DNA of 64,000 nt from positions 3,041 through 67,040 of the forward strand of contig JBDLIC010000004.1 in the NCBI GenBank assembly GCA_039715075.1, given 5' to 3'. Numbering within the stretch: position 1 is the stretch's first letter; each line of letters begins with the position of its first letter. The position numbers were made by a program, and so were the translations under genes. The notes under the pieces are model-generated. The model was given only the letters and a program-made list of their open reading frames with translations. It ran no database searches and was not told the DNA's origin. Positions 11,801 to 59,205 of this stretch are shown here, one piece after another. The stretch is from Nitrospirota bacterium (GTDB taxonomy: Bacteria; Nitrospirota; Thermodesulfovibrionia; UBA6902).

Positions 11801-12169
11801 ATGTACGAATTAATGATTGAGTCACAATTTGCTGCCGCTCATCAGCTAAGAGAATATAAAGGGAAATGTGAAGCACTACATGGCCATAACTGGAGAATCC
11901 AGGTGACTGTCTCTTCTGACAAACTGGATGATCTTGGCATGGTAATAGACTTTCATGAGTTAAAGGACATGACCAATGAGACCATTGCATCACTGGACCA
12001 TTCTTTTTTAAATGAAGTTTTTCCATTTACTGAAATAAACCCCTCATCTGAAAACATGGCTAAATGGATCTTTGAATCAATAAAAAAGAAAATCGGGAAT
12101 AAGGCAATCAGTCTTTCATCTGTGACTGTATGGGAAAATGAAACAGCATCGGCTACCTTCTTTGAATAG
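11801..12169 (+). CDS. queD: 6-carboxy-5,6,7,8-tetrahydropterin synthase QueD
   Basis: 122 aa; CExLHGHNW motif of the PTPS/QueD family. Confidence 0.9.
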   Translation: MYELMIESQFAAAHQLREYKGKCEALHGHNWRIQVTVSSDKLDDLGMVIDFHELKDMTNETIASLDHSFLNEVFPFTEINPSSENMAKWIFESIKKKIGNKAISLSSVTVWENETASATFFE

Positions 12170-12175
12170 TGTTTA

Positions 12176-12357
12176 AACCTAAATCCGGCAGTTGAAACCT
12201 ACTGCGAAATGATAATGCAATGAATCTACAGTCTTTTTCAGAACATTTTTGTCTCACCGTAGAGGTGACTACGCCTTCGCCAAAAATAACCTGAAAAAGC
12301 CTGTATCTTCATCACCTTATCCTCTCTCGTCACGCCTTCAACTGCCGGATTTAGGTT
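12176..12357. repeat. REPIN/MITE-like element: 21-bp perfect inverted repeats flanking a 140-bp interior
   Basis: Left arm aacctaaatccggcagttgaa at 12176..12196; right arm ttcaactgccggatttaggtt at 12337..12357 is its exact reverse complement. Sits between convergent queD and the lipoprotein gene. Confidence 0.8.
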
Positions 12358-12390: not shown

Positions 12391-13299
12391 TTATGTGGAC
12401 TGTTCCCCGTTTTGAGCAAAACCTATTCTGGTGGTAAAGGGTACAATAATTTTGCCGCCGTGATTATCGTCTACCAGGACCTTTATTTCGTGAAGTCCTT
12501 CGTTTTCATGGCTGACTTTCCATTTGATAACTCCACTTGATGGATCGATGGTCATTCCGTCAGGGCTTTCCAGCAGCGAGTACGTAAGGAGATCGTTGTC
12601 CGGATCGGATGCGGAAACATGGTATTCGTAGGTATCCCCTGTAAAGGACGGTGATGATTCAGAAAAGACCGGTAATGAATTGTAAACACTGCTTTTTAAT
12701 ACAAGTTGCTTGCCGGATTCATCGCCGTCGTAAGGAGTAATACTGATTGAGATTTTGTCTCCTCTTTTAAGCGTGGCTTCGAGATAGTTTTCTTCACCTG
12801 CAAAATTACCATTCAGGGCCCATTCGTAACTATAGGAGACAATATCATTGTCAGCGTCCCTGGCCTTAACATTAATCTGCAATACTGAGTCGACCCTCGG
12901 GATTCTGGGTGACAATTTTGCATCTGCTATTGCGGGCGGTGAGTTTTTAATTGTTATTTCATTTGACATGAACTCCTGTTCATCTTTTTTCACGATTGCC
13001 TTAACCCTGTCCCCTTTATTAAGATCATTTGAACTGAAACGATAACCCTGAGCAGACTCAACTAATCCTTCGTTAATATACCAATGAATCTTTCCGCCGG
13101 TCAGTATGCTTCTTTCAGCCTTCAGAGTGAACTGAGCTTTTCTTGTGGCCTCATGAGGAACTATGGTGACCGGAGATGATATTGCCTGATCGTGTACATC
13201 CGTGTTCAGCGTAGATACCCTGCTGTTATCAGGACCATTACTGCAGCTGAGCAATATAAAAGACAAGAGCAGAATCAGGCATGCTCTGATAACAATCAT
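12391..13299 (-). CDS. lipoprotein with putative Ig/cadherin-like (He_PIG-type) repeats
   Basis: 302 aa; signal peptide with LLSC lipobox; DPDNDLLTYSLLESPDGMTIDPSSGVIKW-type repeat. Its start overlaps the PilY1 stop by 4 nt, so it is the last gene of the pilus operon. Confidence 0.6.
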   Translation of the reverse strand: MIVIRACLILLLSFILLSCSNGPDNSRVSTLNTDVHDQAISSPVTIVPHEATRKAQFTLKAERSILTGGKIHWYINEGLVESAQGYRFSSNDLNKGDRVKAIVKKDEQEFMSNEITIKNSPPAIADAKLSPRIPRVDSVLQINVKARDADNDIVSYSYEWALNGNFAGEENYLEATLKRGDKISISITPYDGDESGKQLVLKSSVYNSLPVFSESSPSFTGDTYEYHVSASDPDNDLLTYSLLESPDGMTIDPSSGVIKWKVSHENEGLHEIKVLVDDNHGGKIIVPFTTRIGFAQNGEQST

Positions 13300-27053: not shown

Positions 27054-27071
27054 TTAATATTTTGAAGATTT

Positions 27072-27169
27072 AAATCCCCCTTTGGCAAAGGGGGATTTAG
27101 GGGGATTATTAAAATGATTTTAGTATGATTATAAAATCTCCCCTAACCCCTCTTTGCCAAAGAGGGGAA
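27072..27169. repeat. bipartite palindromic intergenic repeat, copy A (~100 bp)
   Basis: hairpin aaatccccctttggcaaagggggattt + agggggatt + AT-rich spacer + aatctcccctaa + hairpin cccctctttgccaaagagggg; homologous copies at 49509..49598 and 63914..63960. Confidence 0.85.
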
Positions 27170-30282: not shown

Positions 30283-30371
30283 ACTGTTCCAACCGTTCCA
30301 ACAGTTTTAACTGTTCCAGCAGTTAACGGCTCAAGCGGCTGAAACGGCTGAAACGGCTGGAACGGTTTTTT
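30283..30371 (+). terminator. compound repeat-hairpin terminator (inverted 9-mer arrays + T6)
   Basis: Array ctgttccaa ccgttccaa cagttttaa ctgttccag and an inverse array aacggctga aacggctgg aacgg, followed by tttttt. Confidence 0.55.
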
Positions 30372-32822: not shown

Positions 32823-32825
32823 AAA

Positions 32826-32914
32826 GGATCCAAGGGGTCCAGGGTTCAAGGATTCGAGTGAAAGAAAAATCAGTTTCACTTGAACCCTCGAATCCTTGAA
32901 TCCTTGAATCCTAG
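32826..32914. repeat. inverted tandem-repeat arrays (GGNTCCAGG-type 9-mers vs CCTTGAATC-type)
   Basis: ggatccaag gggtccagg gttcaagga ttcgag ... cttgaaccc tcgaatcct tgaatcct tgaatcct, between moeB/thiF and the ThrC paralog. Confidence 0.7.
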
Positions 32915-32979
32915 ACTCCTGGTAATAAACAGGAAATATTTTACTAAGTATAGAAGTAATATTGGAGGCAAATTAAATT

Positions 32980-42291: not shown

Positions 42292-42377
42292 GCCGGAGTG
42301 GTGAAATGGCAGACGCGTCGGACTCAAAATCCGATATCCTCCGGGATGTGTGGGTTCGAATCCCACCTCCGGCACCA
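42292..42377 (+). tRNA. tRNA-Leu (anticodon CAA)
   Basis: 86 nt; GCCGGAG acceptor stem; long variable arm; anticodon loop CUCAAAA; TPsiC arm GGTTCGAATCC; terminal CCA encoded. Confidence 0.88.
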
Positions 42378-42514: not shown

Positions 42515-42847
42515 GTGAATGTCGGTATTCATTCAGAAAGGATTCCCTGTAACGTGAATGCAACCATCACGTCTGAAGGCAATATCTTTGATGGTGTTAT
42601 AGAAAACGTCTCTGAGGGAGGAATGGAGTATTTAATAACTTCCTCAATTATGTCATCTGGAAACTTTACTCCCAAGAAAATGATAAAACTTAATTTCCGA
42701 ATCCCTTCAGGAGAATCACTTGATCTTGATTGTGAAGTGGAATGGTTTTTAAAGACCCCGCAGGATGAAAATAAATCTCTGATACTGGGAATGAAGATTA
42801 TTGATCCGCCTGAGATATACAGGAAGCTGGTCAATAGAGAATGCTGA
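42515..42847 (+). CDS. PilZ domain protein (c-di-GMP binding)
   Basis: 110 aa; RIPCNVN ... ENVSEGG, i.e. RxxxR...(D/N)xSxGG. Confidence 0.65.
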   Translation: MNVGIHSERIPCNVNATITSEGNIFDGVIENVSEGGMEYLITSSIMSSGNFTPKKMIKLNFRIPSGESLDLDCEVEWFLKTPQDENKSLILGMKIIDPPEIYRKLVNREC

Positions 42848-42870
42848 TGACTGTATTGAATTAGATCAGA

Positions 42871-43191
42871 TTATTCCAGCGGAGCTGCAAGCAATTCTTT
42901 AAGATGAAATGCGTTTTTGACCGCAAACCCACCGTGGCAGTTATTAAACATCGCATATGTTTTTTTTGCCTTTCTGTTTAATCTGCGGACCGATCCGGCA
43001 AATTCTTTCAGCTCGCTGTCAGAATAAAGGTAGGAATATCTGAGAGATGTTTCCACTCCTTTTTTAAGCCAGTTCTGAGTGTTTCTGCCGTGGAACCTGA
43101 AGTATGCAATTCCGCTCGTGACCTCAGGATAGAATTTGAGGCGGTCCCTGGCTGTTTTAACATTGGGAGAATAAAACTCACCTCTCTCAAA
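42871..43191 (-). pseudogene. C-terminal remnant of a DUF72 (YecE/UPF0759) gene
   Basis: The open frame after the TGA at 43192..43194 reads ...YFRFHGRNTQNWLKKGVETSLRYSYLYSDSELKEFAGSV...MFNNCHGGFAVKNAF. This matches only the last ~105 aa of the ~260-aa family and has no start. Confidence 0.55.
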
Positions 43192-43272
43192 TCAGTGCCT
43201 CTTGATATAACAATTTAATATCAGTTACTATTTTAAACTACTAAAAAATCTTTATTGTAAGGGACAATAATA

Positions 43273-43806
43273 ATGAAAAGAAAAATTCTTTTGACCATAG
43301 GTGTTGTTTTTTTGGCTATCACGCTTTCTGCGGTTCTGTTTAATGAATATGCTGAAGGGACAAATCCTTACAGTTCCGGAAGGATGATAGGCCAGCCGGC
43401 ACCTGATCTTTCTCTGAAGGACCTGTCAGGCAATGAGGTATCGATAGCATCTTTTAAAGGAAAAACAGTTTTGTTGAATTTCTGGGCCACATGGTGCCCA
43501 TATTGCAGAAAAGAGAGGACCGAACTGAACACCCTTCATGATGAATATAAGGACAAAGGTCTGGTGATTGTTTCGGTATCAATCGACAGGTCTATGGAAA
43601 AACTGAAGCGCTATATGAAAGAGATGCCTGCTGAATTTATTGTCCTGTCCGATACAGAGGGTTCGTCAGCCGGATCATATGAAATTATGGGTCTGCCGAC
43701 TTCTTATATGATAGACAGCAAGGGAATAGTAAGGCACAAGAATACGGGGTACAAAAAATGGACCAGCTCTTCTTCAAGGAAAATCATTAATGACCTGGTC
43801 AATTAA
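43273..43806 (+). CDS. TlpA/ResA-like thiol:disulfide oxidoreductase
   Basis: 177 aa; signal anchor; thioredoxin fold with WATWCPYCR. Confidence 0.85.
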   Translation: MKRKILLTIGVVFLAITLSAVLFNEYAEGTNPYSSGRMIGQPAPDLSLKDLSGNEVSIASFKGKTVLLNFWATWCPYCRKERTELNTLHDEYKDKGLVIVSVSIDRSMEKLKRYMKEMPAEFIVLSDTEGSSAGSYEIMGLPTSYMIDSKGIVRHKNTGYKKWTSSSSRKIINDLVN

Positions 43807-43968
43807 GAGCCTGTCGGACTTAGGGAATCGTCACGAAAAATGGATAAATTTAGAACAGATTTTCAAGGTTTTGAGGCGAATAGTAGAGCTATTTAACGAA
43901 AAACCATGGAAATATGAGCAAATTTAGCCATTTTGCAGTAGATTACTTCCTAAGTCCGACAGGCTCTT
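43805..43968. repeat. REPIN/MITE-like element: 20-bp perfect inverted repeats flanking a 124-bp interior
   Basis: aagagcctgtcggacttagg at 43805..43824 and cctaagtccgacaggctctt at 43949..43968; core CCTAAGTCCGACAGG is related to the arm of the 12176 element but in the opposite arrangement. Confidence 0.8.
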
Positions 43969-43982
43969 ACGACCCGTTTTTC

Positions 43983-44011
43983 TTGACAAAATAGTTTTCC
44001 AAGTATAGAAT
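43983..44011 (+). promoter_or_regulatory. sigma70-type promoter upstream of gcvH
   Basis: TTGACA - 17 bp - TAGAAT, about 60 nt upstream of the gcvH ATG. Confidence 0.55.
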
Positions 44012-44070
44012 TTCACTCACTAAAGATAAAACTTATCACGGGCAAACCCTGATAAAACAAGGAGGTCAAA

Positions 44071-44463
44071 ATGTATCCTGATAATCTTAAATATCACAAA
44101 GAGCATACCTGGGTAAAGGTATCAGGCAACAAGGCAACTGTGGGAATAACATTCTATGCCCAGGAGTCCCTTGGAGACATCGTTTATGTTGATACGCCTG
44201 AAATCGATTCAACCATAGAAGCTGGTACGGAACTGACACAGATAGAGTCGACAAAAGCTACCTCATCGGTAATCAGTCCGGTAAGCGGAACCGTCGTAGA
44301 GTTTAACGAAGAGCTCGGAGATTCTCCGGAAATTATTAATGAAGATTCCTATGAAAAAGGCTGGGTTGCGATTATTGAGGTTGAGGATGATTCAGAGCTT
44401 GAAGGCCTTCTGGATGCTGATGAGTACGAAAAATATATTGAAGAAGAGGTGAAGCTTAAATAA
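44071..44463 (+). CDS. gcvH: glycine cleavage system H protein
   Basis: 130 aa; lipoyl-lysine region IESTKATSSVISPVSG. Confidence 0.85.
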   Translation: MYPDNLKYHKEHTWVKVSGNKATVGITFYAQESLGDIVYVDTPEIDSTIEAGTELTQIESTKATSSVISPVSGTVVEFNEELGDSPEIINEDSYEKGWVAIIEVEDDSELEGLLDADEYEKYIEEEVKLK

Positions 44464-49457: not shown

Positions 49458-49508
49458 TTAAGAATTACGAATTTTGGATTAATATTTCATGAAAAGTTAT
49501 CCTTTTAT

Positions 49509-49598
49509 ATCTCCCCCTTTGGAAAAGGGGGATTAAGGGGGATTTTATAATTACATCATTGAAAAATCCCCCCTAGCCCCCCTTTACTAAAGTGGGGA
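49509..49598. repeat. bipartite palindromic intergenic repeat, copy B
   Basis: atctccccctttggaaaagggggattaagggggatt...aatcccccctagcccccctttactaaagtgggg; homologous to 27072..27169. Confidence 0.85.
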
Positions 49599-49648
49599 AT
49601 ACAAGTTGAGGAGTCAATAATGCAGTTAACCTTTATAAGGCATATTTA

Positions 49649-56166: not shown

Positions 56167-56353
56167 AAGATGGGTAACCGGACCATTTACATCACCGCAG
56201 ATGATCTTCACCTTTTAAAAACTACGATTGACGAATGACGAGGTTATTACTACTTCGTAATTCGTCAATCGCTATTCGTCAATTTCTTTTCCTGTTGTTT
56301 AAAGGATTAGTTACCTTCTGTCTGCGATATAAGGATAGTGATAGGAGAATAAA

Positions 56354-57939: not shown

Positions 57940-57989
57940 AAAATGGGCCGCCTTTCTGAAATGAGATATCTTACCATTAATAGTACTAA

Positions 57990-58112
57990 GCTGTCAGCCG
58001 TCAGCTATCAGCTCTCAGCCTTAAAAAAAAAACGAAAGCACCTGCTTTAGTTTAGCTGTCAGCTATCAGCTCTTATTTTTTAGCTGACCGCTGAAAGCTG
58101 ACGGCTGACAGC
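57990..58112. repeat. GCTNTCA heptamer arrays (direct array + inverted array pair) with embedded terminator
   Basis: 57990..58020 gctgtca gccgtca gctatca gctctca gcc; 58054..58072 array; 58083..58112 inverted array ctgaccgctgaaagctgacggctgacagc. On the minus strand a hairpin AAGCAGGUGCUU plus U10 at 58023..58049 terminates the OYE gene, whose C-terminus is encoded within the arrays. Confidence 0.8.
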
Positions 58113-59205
58113 TTTTTTTCTTTACACAATAAATTCCTGTACCCCTTAAGCCAGGCCTGAAACACGCATTGTCGGACATGCATGCTGATTGTATTTCTTT
58201 ACCTGATTCCCACCTGTTGATCAGATCAGGGTCCCGGATGAAAGAACGGCTCATCGATATATAGTCAGTGGTCCCTTCGGTTAACAATTTTTCAGAAACT
58301 TCAAAAGAACGGATACCACCGACGAGCATTAACGGGACAGTGATTTCGGACTTGAATAATTTTGCGGCTTCCAGGTAATAAACCTCTTTATCTGATTCAG
58401 GCATGCCGGGCCTTACCGGTCTCAGCTTTCTGTCAGAATGAATCGTGCCTCCGCTTAACTCAATCGCATCGATGCCCTCTTTTTCGAGCATACGGGAGAC
58501 CACTATCATTTCTTCAACATTGAGTCCGTCTTCCAGAAAGTCTTCAGAGTTTATCTTTATTAAAACAGGGAAGTCATTACCCACGGCATTCCTGACTGAT
58601 CTGTATGATTCAATTATAATACGTGCACGGTTTTCAATGCTGCCGCCATAATCGTCTTCTCTCCTGTTGTAAAACGGTGAGAGGAACTGGCTTAGAAGAT
58701 AACCATGTGCAGCATGAATCTGGACTCCGTCAAAACCGGCCTCTTTTGCCCTGGCAGCTGCATCCCCGAATGCCCTGACTGTTTCTGCTATATCTTCAAT
58801 GCTCATTGCCCTGCATATTGCTTTTCCATTAATCTCAAGGGCGGATGGTCCTGATGGCTCATCTCCGGTGAGTTTCAGGCTGGCCTGGCAACCTGCATGC
58901 GCGAGCTGAAGTACGATCGTTCCATTACTTTGATGGACAGCTTCTGTCATTGATTTAAAACCGGGAATAAAATCATTTTTATGAATACCCAGCTGAAAAG
59001 GCCCTGCCTGGCCTGCGGACTGTACAAAGGCATATCCGGTTATTATCAAACCAGCACCGCCCTCTGCCAGTTTCACCATCATGTCTGTTAACTGTGGAGT
59101 GCAGGAACCGTCCTTTCCTGCGAGCCCCACCCATGTTGCAGAACGCACAAAACGGTTTTTTAGAATCATATTATTTATTTCTGTTTTTTCAAATAAATCT
59201 GACAT
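58066..59205 (-). CDS. Old Yellow Enzyme family NADH:flavin oxidoreductase
   Basis: 379 aa; TIM-barrel OYE motifs (HAAHGYLLSQFLSP); C-terminal Cys residues. Confidence 0.88.
   Translation of the reverse strand: MSDLFEKTEINNMILKNRFVRSATWVGLAGKDGSCTPQLTDMMVKLAEGGAGLIITGYAFVQSAGQAGPFQLGIHKNDFIPGFKSMTEAVHQSNGTIVLQLAHAGCQASLKLTGDEPSGPSALEINGKAICRAMSIEDIAETVRAFGDAAARAKEAGFDGVQIHAAHGYLLSQFLSPFYNRREDDYGGSIENRARIIIESYRSVRNAVGNDFPVLIKINSEDFLEDGLNVEEMIVVSRMLEKEGIDAIELSGGTIHSDRKLRPVRPGMPESDKEVYYLEAAKLFKSEITVPLMLVGGIRSFEVSEKLLTEGTTDYISMSRSFIRDPDLINRWESGKEIQSACMSDNACFRPGLRGTGIYCVKKKSCQPSAFSGQLKNKS

Follow-up and report, generated by a model that had tools for sequence, protein, structure and literature searches.

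The stretch of DNA analysed here (64,000 nt of contig JBDLIC010000004.1 from a Nitrospirota bacterium; hereafter the window) carries, between the genes tlpA and gcvH, a long inverted repeat that is very probably a 160-bp miniature inverted-repeat transposable element (MITE), that is, a non-autonomous element with the 18-nt terminal inverted repeats (TIRs) of DDE-type insertion sequences (ISs) of the IS1182 family, ISAzo1-like subgroup. The element is an insertion at TTAA that duplicated 4 bp; its target was the loop of a small terminator-like hairpin, which overlaps the stop codon of tlpA. As expected of a MITE, it comprises 160 bp without a transposase gene, has perfect 18-nt TIRs (21 nt together with flanking bases) and a target-site duplication, is present or absent at orthologous sites, and occurs in multiple dispersed copies (at least 120 contigs, several copies within single metagenome-assembled genomes, MAGs). 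Its derivation from IS1182 is indicated by the match of the TIR to an IS with an IS1182-family transposase and by the 4-bp length of the duplication. A preliminary description, made from the letters of the window, had called the repeat MITE-like, and the TIRs, the target-site duplication, the lack of a credible open reading frame (ORF), the many copies elsewhere and the empty sites in close relatives all bear this out. As an IS1182-derived MITE, the element is conventional, but its family stands out by its wide spread and conserved structure.

The insertion was defined by comparison with four relatives (L126, L127, L128 and L250) that have a TlpA 84-96% identical to that of the window and an empty site. 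The tlpA ORF (43273-43806) encodes a protein of the TlpA/redoxin type (Pfam AhpC-TSA/Redoxin) whose closest homologues carry Nitrospirota annotation, gcvH starts at 44071, and the order tlpA-gcvH-lpd-kdsA is kept in the four relatives as far as their contigs reach. The tlpA-gcvH spacer is 264 nt long in the window vs. 100-101 nt in the relatives, and alignment to the empty sites revealed near-identical flanks and a clean gap of 163-164 nt directly after AATTAA. Because these 163-164 extra nucleotides equal the 160-bp element plus 4 bp, a 4-bp duplication is supported, and the insertion explains the odd 164-nt expansion between the two genes. In L250, the relative with 96% TlpA identity, the uninterrupted site CTGGTC-AATTAA-GACCAG-TTTTTCTT has the pattern of a terminator, a G+C-rich stem-loop followed by a U-run, with the stop codon and TTAA in the loop. 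Therefore, the window reads TTAA, element, TTAC, and then the old half-stem and U-run: the 164-nt insertion splits the terminator stem and itself folds, while the stem base and the U-run are retained. The absence of the element from relatives this close (84-96% TlpA identity) shows that it was inserted recently, at the species or strain level, and these near-identical strains with and without the MITE offer a natural comparison for the effect of the hairpin on termination and read-through. To the right of the element, where a sigma70 promoter had been described, a sigma70-like site lies at 43983-44011 (TTGACA-17-TAGAAT, 11/12). It is identical in L250 and conserved in L126-L128, all of which lack the MITE, so that it was not brought by the element and predates the insertion.

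The arms of the inverted repeat are perfect over 21 nt (43804-43824 and 43949-43969; left arm TAAGAGCCTGTCGGACTTAGG) rather than over the 20 bp reported before, whereas the reported spacing of 124 nt holds, and so does the statement that the element starts within the tlpA stop codon (TAA, 43804-43806), at which the left arm begins. Two long-spaced perfect inverted repeats in all were reported in the window, this one and a second at 12176-12357. The 124-nt interior is an imperfect palindrome too, and the element including its arms (166 nt) forms a single long hairpin of about 80 bp; the repeat at 12176-12357 likewise folds as a whole-element hairpin. Folding of 43795-43985 gave a continuous hairpin of -83 kcal/mol on the + strand (z = -11.3) and of -70.8 kcal/mol on the - strand, in which pairing extends beyond the element, between GGUC (43797-43800) and GACC (43971-43974). 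The sole ORF touching the element is a 45-aa frame that starts inside tlpA, leaving the element without a credible ORF. A small ORF starting from the apical GAGG..GTG was dismissed, since it is interrupted by an in-frame stop in the window copy and indels occur in the stems.

These comparisons also bear on the origin of the hairpin as a native cis-regulatory RNA or terminator of tlpA-gcvH, for example a gcvH leader, whose length would be due to chance. The hairpin lies between two genes that run in the same direction, it folds better on their sense strand, and a U-run follows the extended stem, all of which would suit such an RNA. However, it is absent from four close relatives that have near-identical spacers and the same promoter, and the same element sits in unrelated gene contexts across many phyla. 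Nor is it a known RNA family: scanning of the whole window with Rfam at the gathering threshold gave a tRNA (42292-42374) as the sole match and none at the element, and a permissive Rfam scan of 43700-44080 gave generic miRNA-precursor hairpin models only, at 21-29 bits against thresholds of 90-211. As an origin this explanation is refuted and retains very little probability, although a regulatory role may have been acquired secondarily.

The termini link the element to IS1182. Two MAGs, one from Synergistaceae (L100) and one from Aminivibrio (L007), share CTAG, the exact 18-mer GAGCCTGTCGGACTTAGG next to it and the sequence downstream. The locus of L007 stops short of the ORF; in L100 the ORF begins 48 nt past the exact 18/18 TIR, and its first 164 aa match the NCBIfam model NF033551 (IS1182; E = 7.8e-44), below the full-length cutoff because the fragment comprises only 164 aa. 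The same ORF fragment also matches Pfam DUF772. A 37-nt TIR query against a plasmid collection returned three weak matches, and through one of them a complete IS of 1593 bp was identified on a plasmid of Mesorhizobium sp. AR07 (L249). This IS reads CTAG-CAGCCTGTCGGACTTAGC ... CAGTCCGACAGGCTG-CTAG and encodes a 457-aa transposase. The TIR of this IS agrees with that of the window at 16/18 positions, and its transposase shares 59-64% identity with plasmid proteins that carry IS1182-family annotation, the closest including ISAzo2. ISAzo1 and an IS on a P. aeruginosa plasmid, both annotated as IS1182 family, have related ends, CAGCGTGTCGGACT.. and CAGTCTGTCGGGCT.., flanked by CTAG. The ISAzo1/ISAzo2-like ISs (Aromatoleum aromaticum EbN1; Mesorhizobium sp. 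AR07) thus resemble the MITE in the terminal repeat (C/G)AGCxTGTCGGACT... and the CTAG flanks, but, unlike it, are autonomous, about 1.55-1.6 kb long with a transposase of about 455 aa, and have no similarity to the MITE interior beyond the TIR. Supportively, IS1182-family ISs and their MITEs produce 4-bp direct repeats, and MITEs of IS1182 parentage are known at 159-169 bp (PMC3281130, which describes ISPse1; PMC3852290; PMC11578231). A model with TA duplication, as in IS630-like elements, was considered for the CTAG flanks and dropped in favour of a 4-bp duplication, because both the size arithmetic at the empty sites and the IS1182 literature fit 4 bp. Candidate full-length ISs in L016 and L004 were rejected as well, there being ordinary genes at these places and a distant 'partner' repeat with 4 mismatches. 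At the contig end of a Thermodesulfovibrionales MAG (L114, 6801-6923), a TIR preceded by CTAA leads into a different, non-MITE sequence; this CTAA shares with the TTAA of the window the A directly before the TIR, where most copies have CTAG, and the site could mark one end of a full-length IS in an organism related to that of the window.

The spread of the family was assessed by a scan for the 18-mer GAGCCTGTCGGACTTAGG, in which each species was represented by one genome; the count is a lower bound. At least 120 genome contigs carry the exact 18-mer, and they belong to Gamma-, Beta- and Zetaproteobacteria, Nitrospirota, several 'Delta' lineages, Verrucomicrobiota, Spirochaetes, Synergistota and others. 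Bacteria in culture that carry the family include Pseudomaricurvus alcaniphilus MEBiC06469, Massilia glaciei B448-2 and Oceanobacter antarcticus wDCs-4. Among the matches listed, 66/137 occurrences had an inverted partner 100-260 nt away, with a modal element length of 159-161 bp, compared with 160 bp between the outer TIR ends of the window copy. Conservation extends to the interior: over its whole length, the window copy is 68-75% identical to copies from other phyla, and an alignment of 42 copies (the window copy and 41 from other genomes) contains the conserved blocks TCGTAGCGAGG, TTTGAGGCG.ATAGTGG..CTA...AACGA.AA and CGCAGTAGAT between variable stems. A profile built from this alignment matched 81 places in the fetched loci and a single one in the window, 43807-43966. 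Of 52 copies, 28 had identical 4-nt flanks, with CTAG on both sides, and in 16 more the flanks differed by one base.

The same TIR also bounds other cargo, namely mini-versions of about 40-50 bp (L003, L099, L101) and elements with a GGGGGATT-type hairpin interior (L089, L094, L103), and one Gammaproteobacteria MAG contains apparent full-length IS ends with it. Many 18-mer matches lie within about 120 nt of a contig end or are multi-copy inside one MAG, and the accumulation at contig ends is what repeats that break assemblies would produce, which makes a definition of the family useful for annotation. In a blastn search with the family consensus, no match was found in the plasmid collection, and the literature searched yielded no description of the MITE family, of its TIR, or of an IS1182 element with a CTAG target duplication. 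To our knowledge, this widespread IS1182-derived MITE family, with its 18-nt terminus, CTAG target and covarying hairpin, was previously uncatalogued.

An independent Logan assembly of the same organism (SRR27843388) has both flanks 100% identical to the window and breaks inside the element: one contig (L001) ends at window position 43832, 8 nt inside the left arm, and the other (L002) starts at 43937, 12 nt before the right arm. From these breaks and from the contig-end copies of other MAGs, it appears that hairpin MITEs fragment short-read assemblies. A break on both sides could likewise come from an inverton, a short segment between perfect inverted repeats that is flipped by a site-specific recombinase, and the perfect 21-nt repeats around about 124 bp next to a promoter region have the layout of one. 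However, divergence between two orientations would begin about 3 nt inside the arms, away from the breaks, and poor read-through of an 80-bp hairpin explains them equally well. Moreover, the family occurs in one consistent asymmetric orientation with transposon-type termini and duplications, and the promoter scan found no promoter-like site inside the inverted-repeat segment. We consider an inverton highly improbable.

The hairpin of the family is conserved at the level of base pairing. On the 42-copy alignment, RNAalifold predicted 59 pairs, 40 of them with compensatory changes. Paired cells amounted to 93.6%, compared with 78% after shuffling and 29-48% when the partners were slid, and double-change cells numbered 330 vs. 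92 after shuffling. All pairs (30/30) of the two interior helices covary, whereas the TIR helix is conserved in sequence instead. Among the unpaired nucleotides of the apex, several hardly vary (GAGGCG.ATAG...CTA...AACGA.AA). Folding favours the same strand in 43/43 copies (mean -89.8 vs. -75.1 kcal/mol, a difference of about 14.6), and the consensus fold reaches -79.7 kcal/mol on the better strand vs. -37.1 on its complement. G:U-type cells outnumber A:C-type cells 185:36 on the predicted structure, and by about 2:1 on strand-neutral pair sets (59:27 when only pairs shared by both strands are counted, 187:97 for the union). For copies between co-directional genes, the strand that folds better was the sense strand at 12:1 by crude ORF calls and at 13:4 (p = 0.049) after a filter on third-codon-position G+C content (GC3), in a census that is small and uses rough gene calls. 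In the window, too, the better-folding strand is the sense strand of tlpA and gcvH.

The covariation and the strand bias hint at a constraint at the RNA level, and the family is a candidate case of such constraint on a MITE. Part of the strand-bias signal could come from inherited ancestral G:U pairs, and transcription-linked mutation bias and hairpin-templated repair of the DNA palindrome could contribute as well. On this basis we propose, only tentatively and as the less probable of the possibilities, that the interior is a strand-specific structured RNA module, spread by IS1182-type transposases over several phyla and retained for a sense-strand action on host transcripts as a terminator, 3′-end stabiliser or RNase III substrate.

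From these features a sequence of events can be proposed for the window copy. An IS1182-family transposase would bind the TIRs, cut at their outer ends and mobilise the MITE in trans, and transposition would be directed to YTAR-type palindromic tetranucleotides, usually CTAG. In the read-out transcript of tlpA, a hairpin of about 80 bp would then be nested in the old terminator stem, with the U-run still behind it. As judged from sequence, the local consequence would most likely be a greatly strengthened hairpin at the 3′-end of tlpA, with the unchanged gcvH promoter downstream. This hairpin would act as a reinforced terminator, 3′-end stabiliser or RNase III target that insulates gcvH from tlpA read-through. 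Several points weigh against the account of the element as an IS1182-derived MITE with such an effect. The right duplication copy is TTAC, not TTAA; the TTAA target of the window is the sole non-CTAG-like target among the 52 copies; and in the 64 kb of the window, a single copy of the family was seen and no IS1182 transposase. A simple terminator scan made no call on the giant hairpin, which its loop limit excludes. Finally, the terminator or stabiliser effect is read from sequence only, and mobilisation of the family in trans by an IS1182 transposase is a prediction.

The preliminary description had grouped the tlpA-gcvH repeat with the one at 12176-12357 as repetitive extragenic palindrome (REP) doublets, or REPINs, in two arrangements of one core recognised by a single protein. 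The second repeat proved to be a MITE of its own, 178 bp long (12178-12355, CC...GG), flanked by a 5-bp duplication (TTAAA/TTAGA) and situated between queD/PTPS (11801-12169, + strand) and an Ig-domain gene (12391-13299, - strand); its - strand folds better (-90.4 vs. -73.1 kcal/mol). The 18-mer of its arm occurs in at least 120 Joint Genome Institute (JGI) metagenome contigs, and termini of this type (17-19 nt) bound elements of about 1.63-1.70 kb as well as many MITEs of 120-390 bp. An ORF in one such IS (L162) matched Pfam DDE_Tnp_1_4 above threshold and NCBIfam IS1380 at E = 1e-27, which is below the cutoff of that model. The 5-bp direct repeats of these elements are non-palindromic and were identical in 23/41 pairs. 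The different IS termini and duplication lengths therefore show the two hairpins of the window to be MITEs of two different DDE transposon families, and look-alike hairpins in one window can stem from unrelated transposons. Consistent with the earlier statement that their interiors are unrelated, the profile of the tlpA-gcvH family has no second match in the window.

The similarity of the two cores is real in number and smaller than had been claimed. CCTAAGTCCGACAG and CCTAAATCCGGCAG agree at 12/14 positions in ungapped alignment, not 13/14, the differences being at positions 6 and 11, and comparison of CTGTCGGACTTAGG (43807-43824) with CTGCCGGATTTAGG (12178-12191) on the opposite strand shows both to be transitions. 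This exceeds chance for the single comparison made: 5/20,000 shuffled arms (about 2.5e-4) and 0/20,000 random 21-mers of the window matched as well. A looser scan of the window with a 15-mer at up to 3 mismatches gave 4 matches against 0.83 expected, a count that is not significant alone. The CCTAA end indeed faces inward in the tlpA-gcvH element and outward at 12176. However, the core CCTAA(G/A)TCCG(A/G)CAG forms the tip of the IS1380-like repeat and the inner part of the IS1182 repeat, with opposite polarity relative to the cleavage sites, so that head-to-head and tail-to-tail are not two arrangements of one site. Other IS1182 termini are without the TTAGG half of the core, and the 12176-type core had no match in the first 122 loci. 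The match is probably a coincidence, no mechanism for it having been found.

Mobilisation as a REPIN by a REP-associated tyrosine transposase (RAYT, a Y1 transposase), with the 12176 element as the second arrangement, is accordingly most unlikely. The long intergenic hairpin and the rarer-than-chance core fit it, but besides the opposite core polarity and the core half lost from related TIRs, the element has the termini of DDE-type IS1182 elements, the 4-bp duplication and the empty sites show a cut-and-paste or copy-in insertion, and the arms at 12176 are those of another IS, an IS1380-like one that makes 5-bp duplications. REP-RAYT systems share with the window element the nature of an intergenic, hairpin-forming repeat; they use Y1 (HUH) transposases and are highly repeated per genome, in contrast to the single copy of each element in the 64 kb.

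Other known systems are similar in form. The Correia elements of Neisseria and the ERIC/IRU elements of Enterobacteria are intergenic palindromes of about 100-160 bp over their whole length, which are transcribed into long hairpins and act on the co-transcribed mRNA. They differ from the window family in their termini, target sites and presumed parent IS, and are restricted to a genus or family. MITEPye1 of Paracoccus yeei is a 159-bp intergenic element without an ORF. Its 18-bp TIRs resemble the ends of IS1182-family ISs, it has direct repeats of 4 bp and is predicted to form a long RNA stem-loop, and its mobilisation in trans by IS1182-family transposases has been proposed (PMC11578231). By description, on which this comparison is made, it is like the window family in size, TIR length, 4-bp duplication and hairpin; it has been reported in a single species, with 1-3 copies on each chromosome (PMC11578231), whereas the window family spans several phyla. 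A tblastn search with the Mesorhizobium transposase gave no P. yeei match in the close subgroup, and one P. yeei plasmid that was searched contained no copy of the family. Because the IS1182 elements of P. yeei fall outside the close transposase subgroup of the TIR-bearing ISs, MITEPye1 probably represents a separate family. The ISMac2-derived MITEs of Methanosarcina acetivorans, with an IS1182-family partner, lengths of 160 and 169 bp, inverted repeats of 25-26 nt and 4-bp direct repeats (PMC3852290), are likewise similar by description and differ in their archaeal host.

Features of the tlpA-gcvH intergenic region and its flanks (window coordinates).
Feature	Position	Strand	Basis
Left half of the pre-existing terminator-like stem, CTGGTC	43795-43800	+	Empty site in L250; window fold
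Left target-site duplication copy TTAA, holding the tlpA stop TAA (43804-43806)	43803-43806	+	Alignment with four empty sites; ORF end
Left TIR GAGCCTGTCGGACTTAGG, IS1182-family type	43807-43824	+	At least 120 genome contigs; L100; Mesorhizobium IS (16/18)
MITE interior, upper part of the hairpin	43825-43948	+	Folding; full-length alignment to 41 copies; covariation
Conserved apical motif TTTGAGGCGAATAGT..CTATTTAACGAAAA	about 43874-43910	+	Within the MITE interior
Right TIR CCTAAGTCCGACAGGCTC	43949-43966	+	Perfect complement of the left TIR; 160 bp between outer ends
Right duplication copy TTAC (3/4 match to TTAA)	43967-43970	+	Insertion size vs. empty sites
Right half of the pre-existing stem, GACCCG, then T-run TTTTTCTT	43971-43976; 43977-43984	+	Kept in relatives without the element
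gcvH promoter-like site TTGACA-17-TAGAAT, outside the element	43983-44011	+	In L250; kept in L126-L128

Upstream of tlpA, the window and its relatives differ. The relatives have a GGDEF/EAL gene there, and L126 a full DUF72 gene as well (L126 1-2786; L250 10-348), whereas the window (42515-43200) has a PilZ-domain ORF at 42515-42847 and a 61-aa C-terminal DUF72 fragment at 42871-43056 (- strand), with the tRNA at 42292-42374 also lying upstream of tlpA. In the lineage of the window, this region has therefore undergone a rearrangement or a partial deletion.

Further hairpin repeats were observed in the window. Intergenic hairpins at 27071-27166 and 49505-49604 carry CCCCCTTTGG.AAAGGGGGATT.AGGGGGATT motifs and are without IS1182-type termini in the window; in the MAG CBDUZI01 (L089, L094, L103 and partly L008/L086), a very similar hairpin is the interior of elements with GAGCCTGTCGGACTTAGG TIRs. 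Additional intergenic inverted repeats are located at 57988-58114, 32824-32920, 30291-30367 and 56225-56283, with arms made of short tandem repeats, for example AGCTGTCAGCCGTCAGCTATCAGC.., AGGATCCAAGGGGTCCAGGGTTCAAGG.. and AACCGTTCCAACAGTTTTAAC... The genome thus seems to be rich in diverse hairpin repeats.

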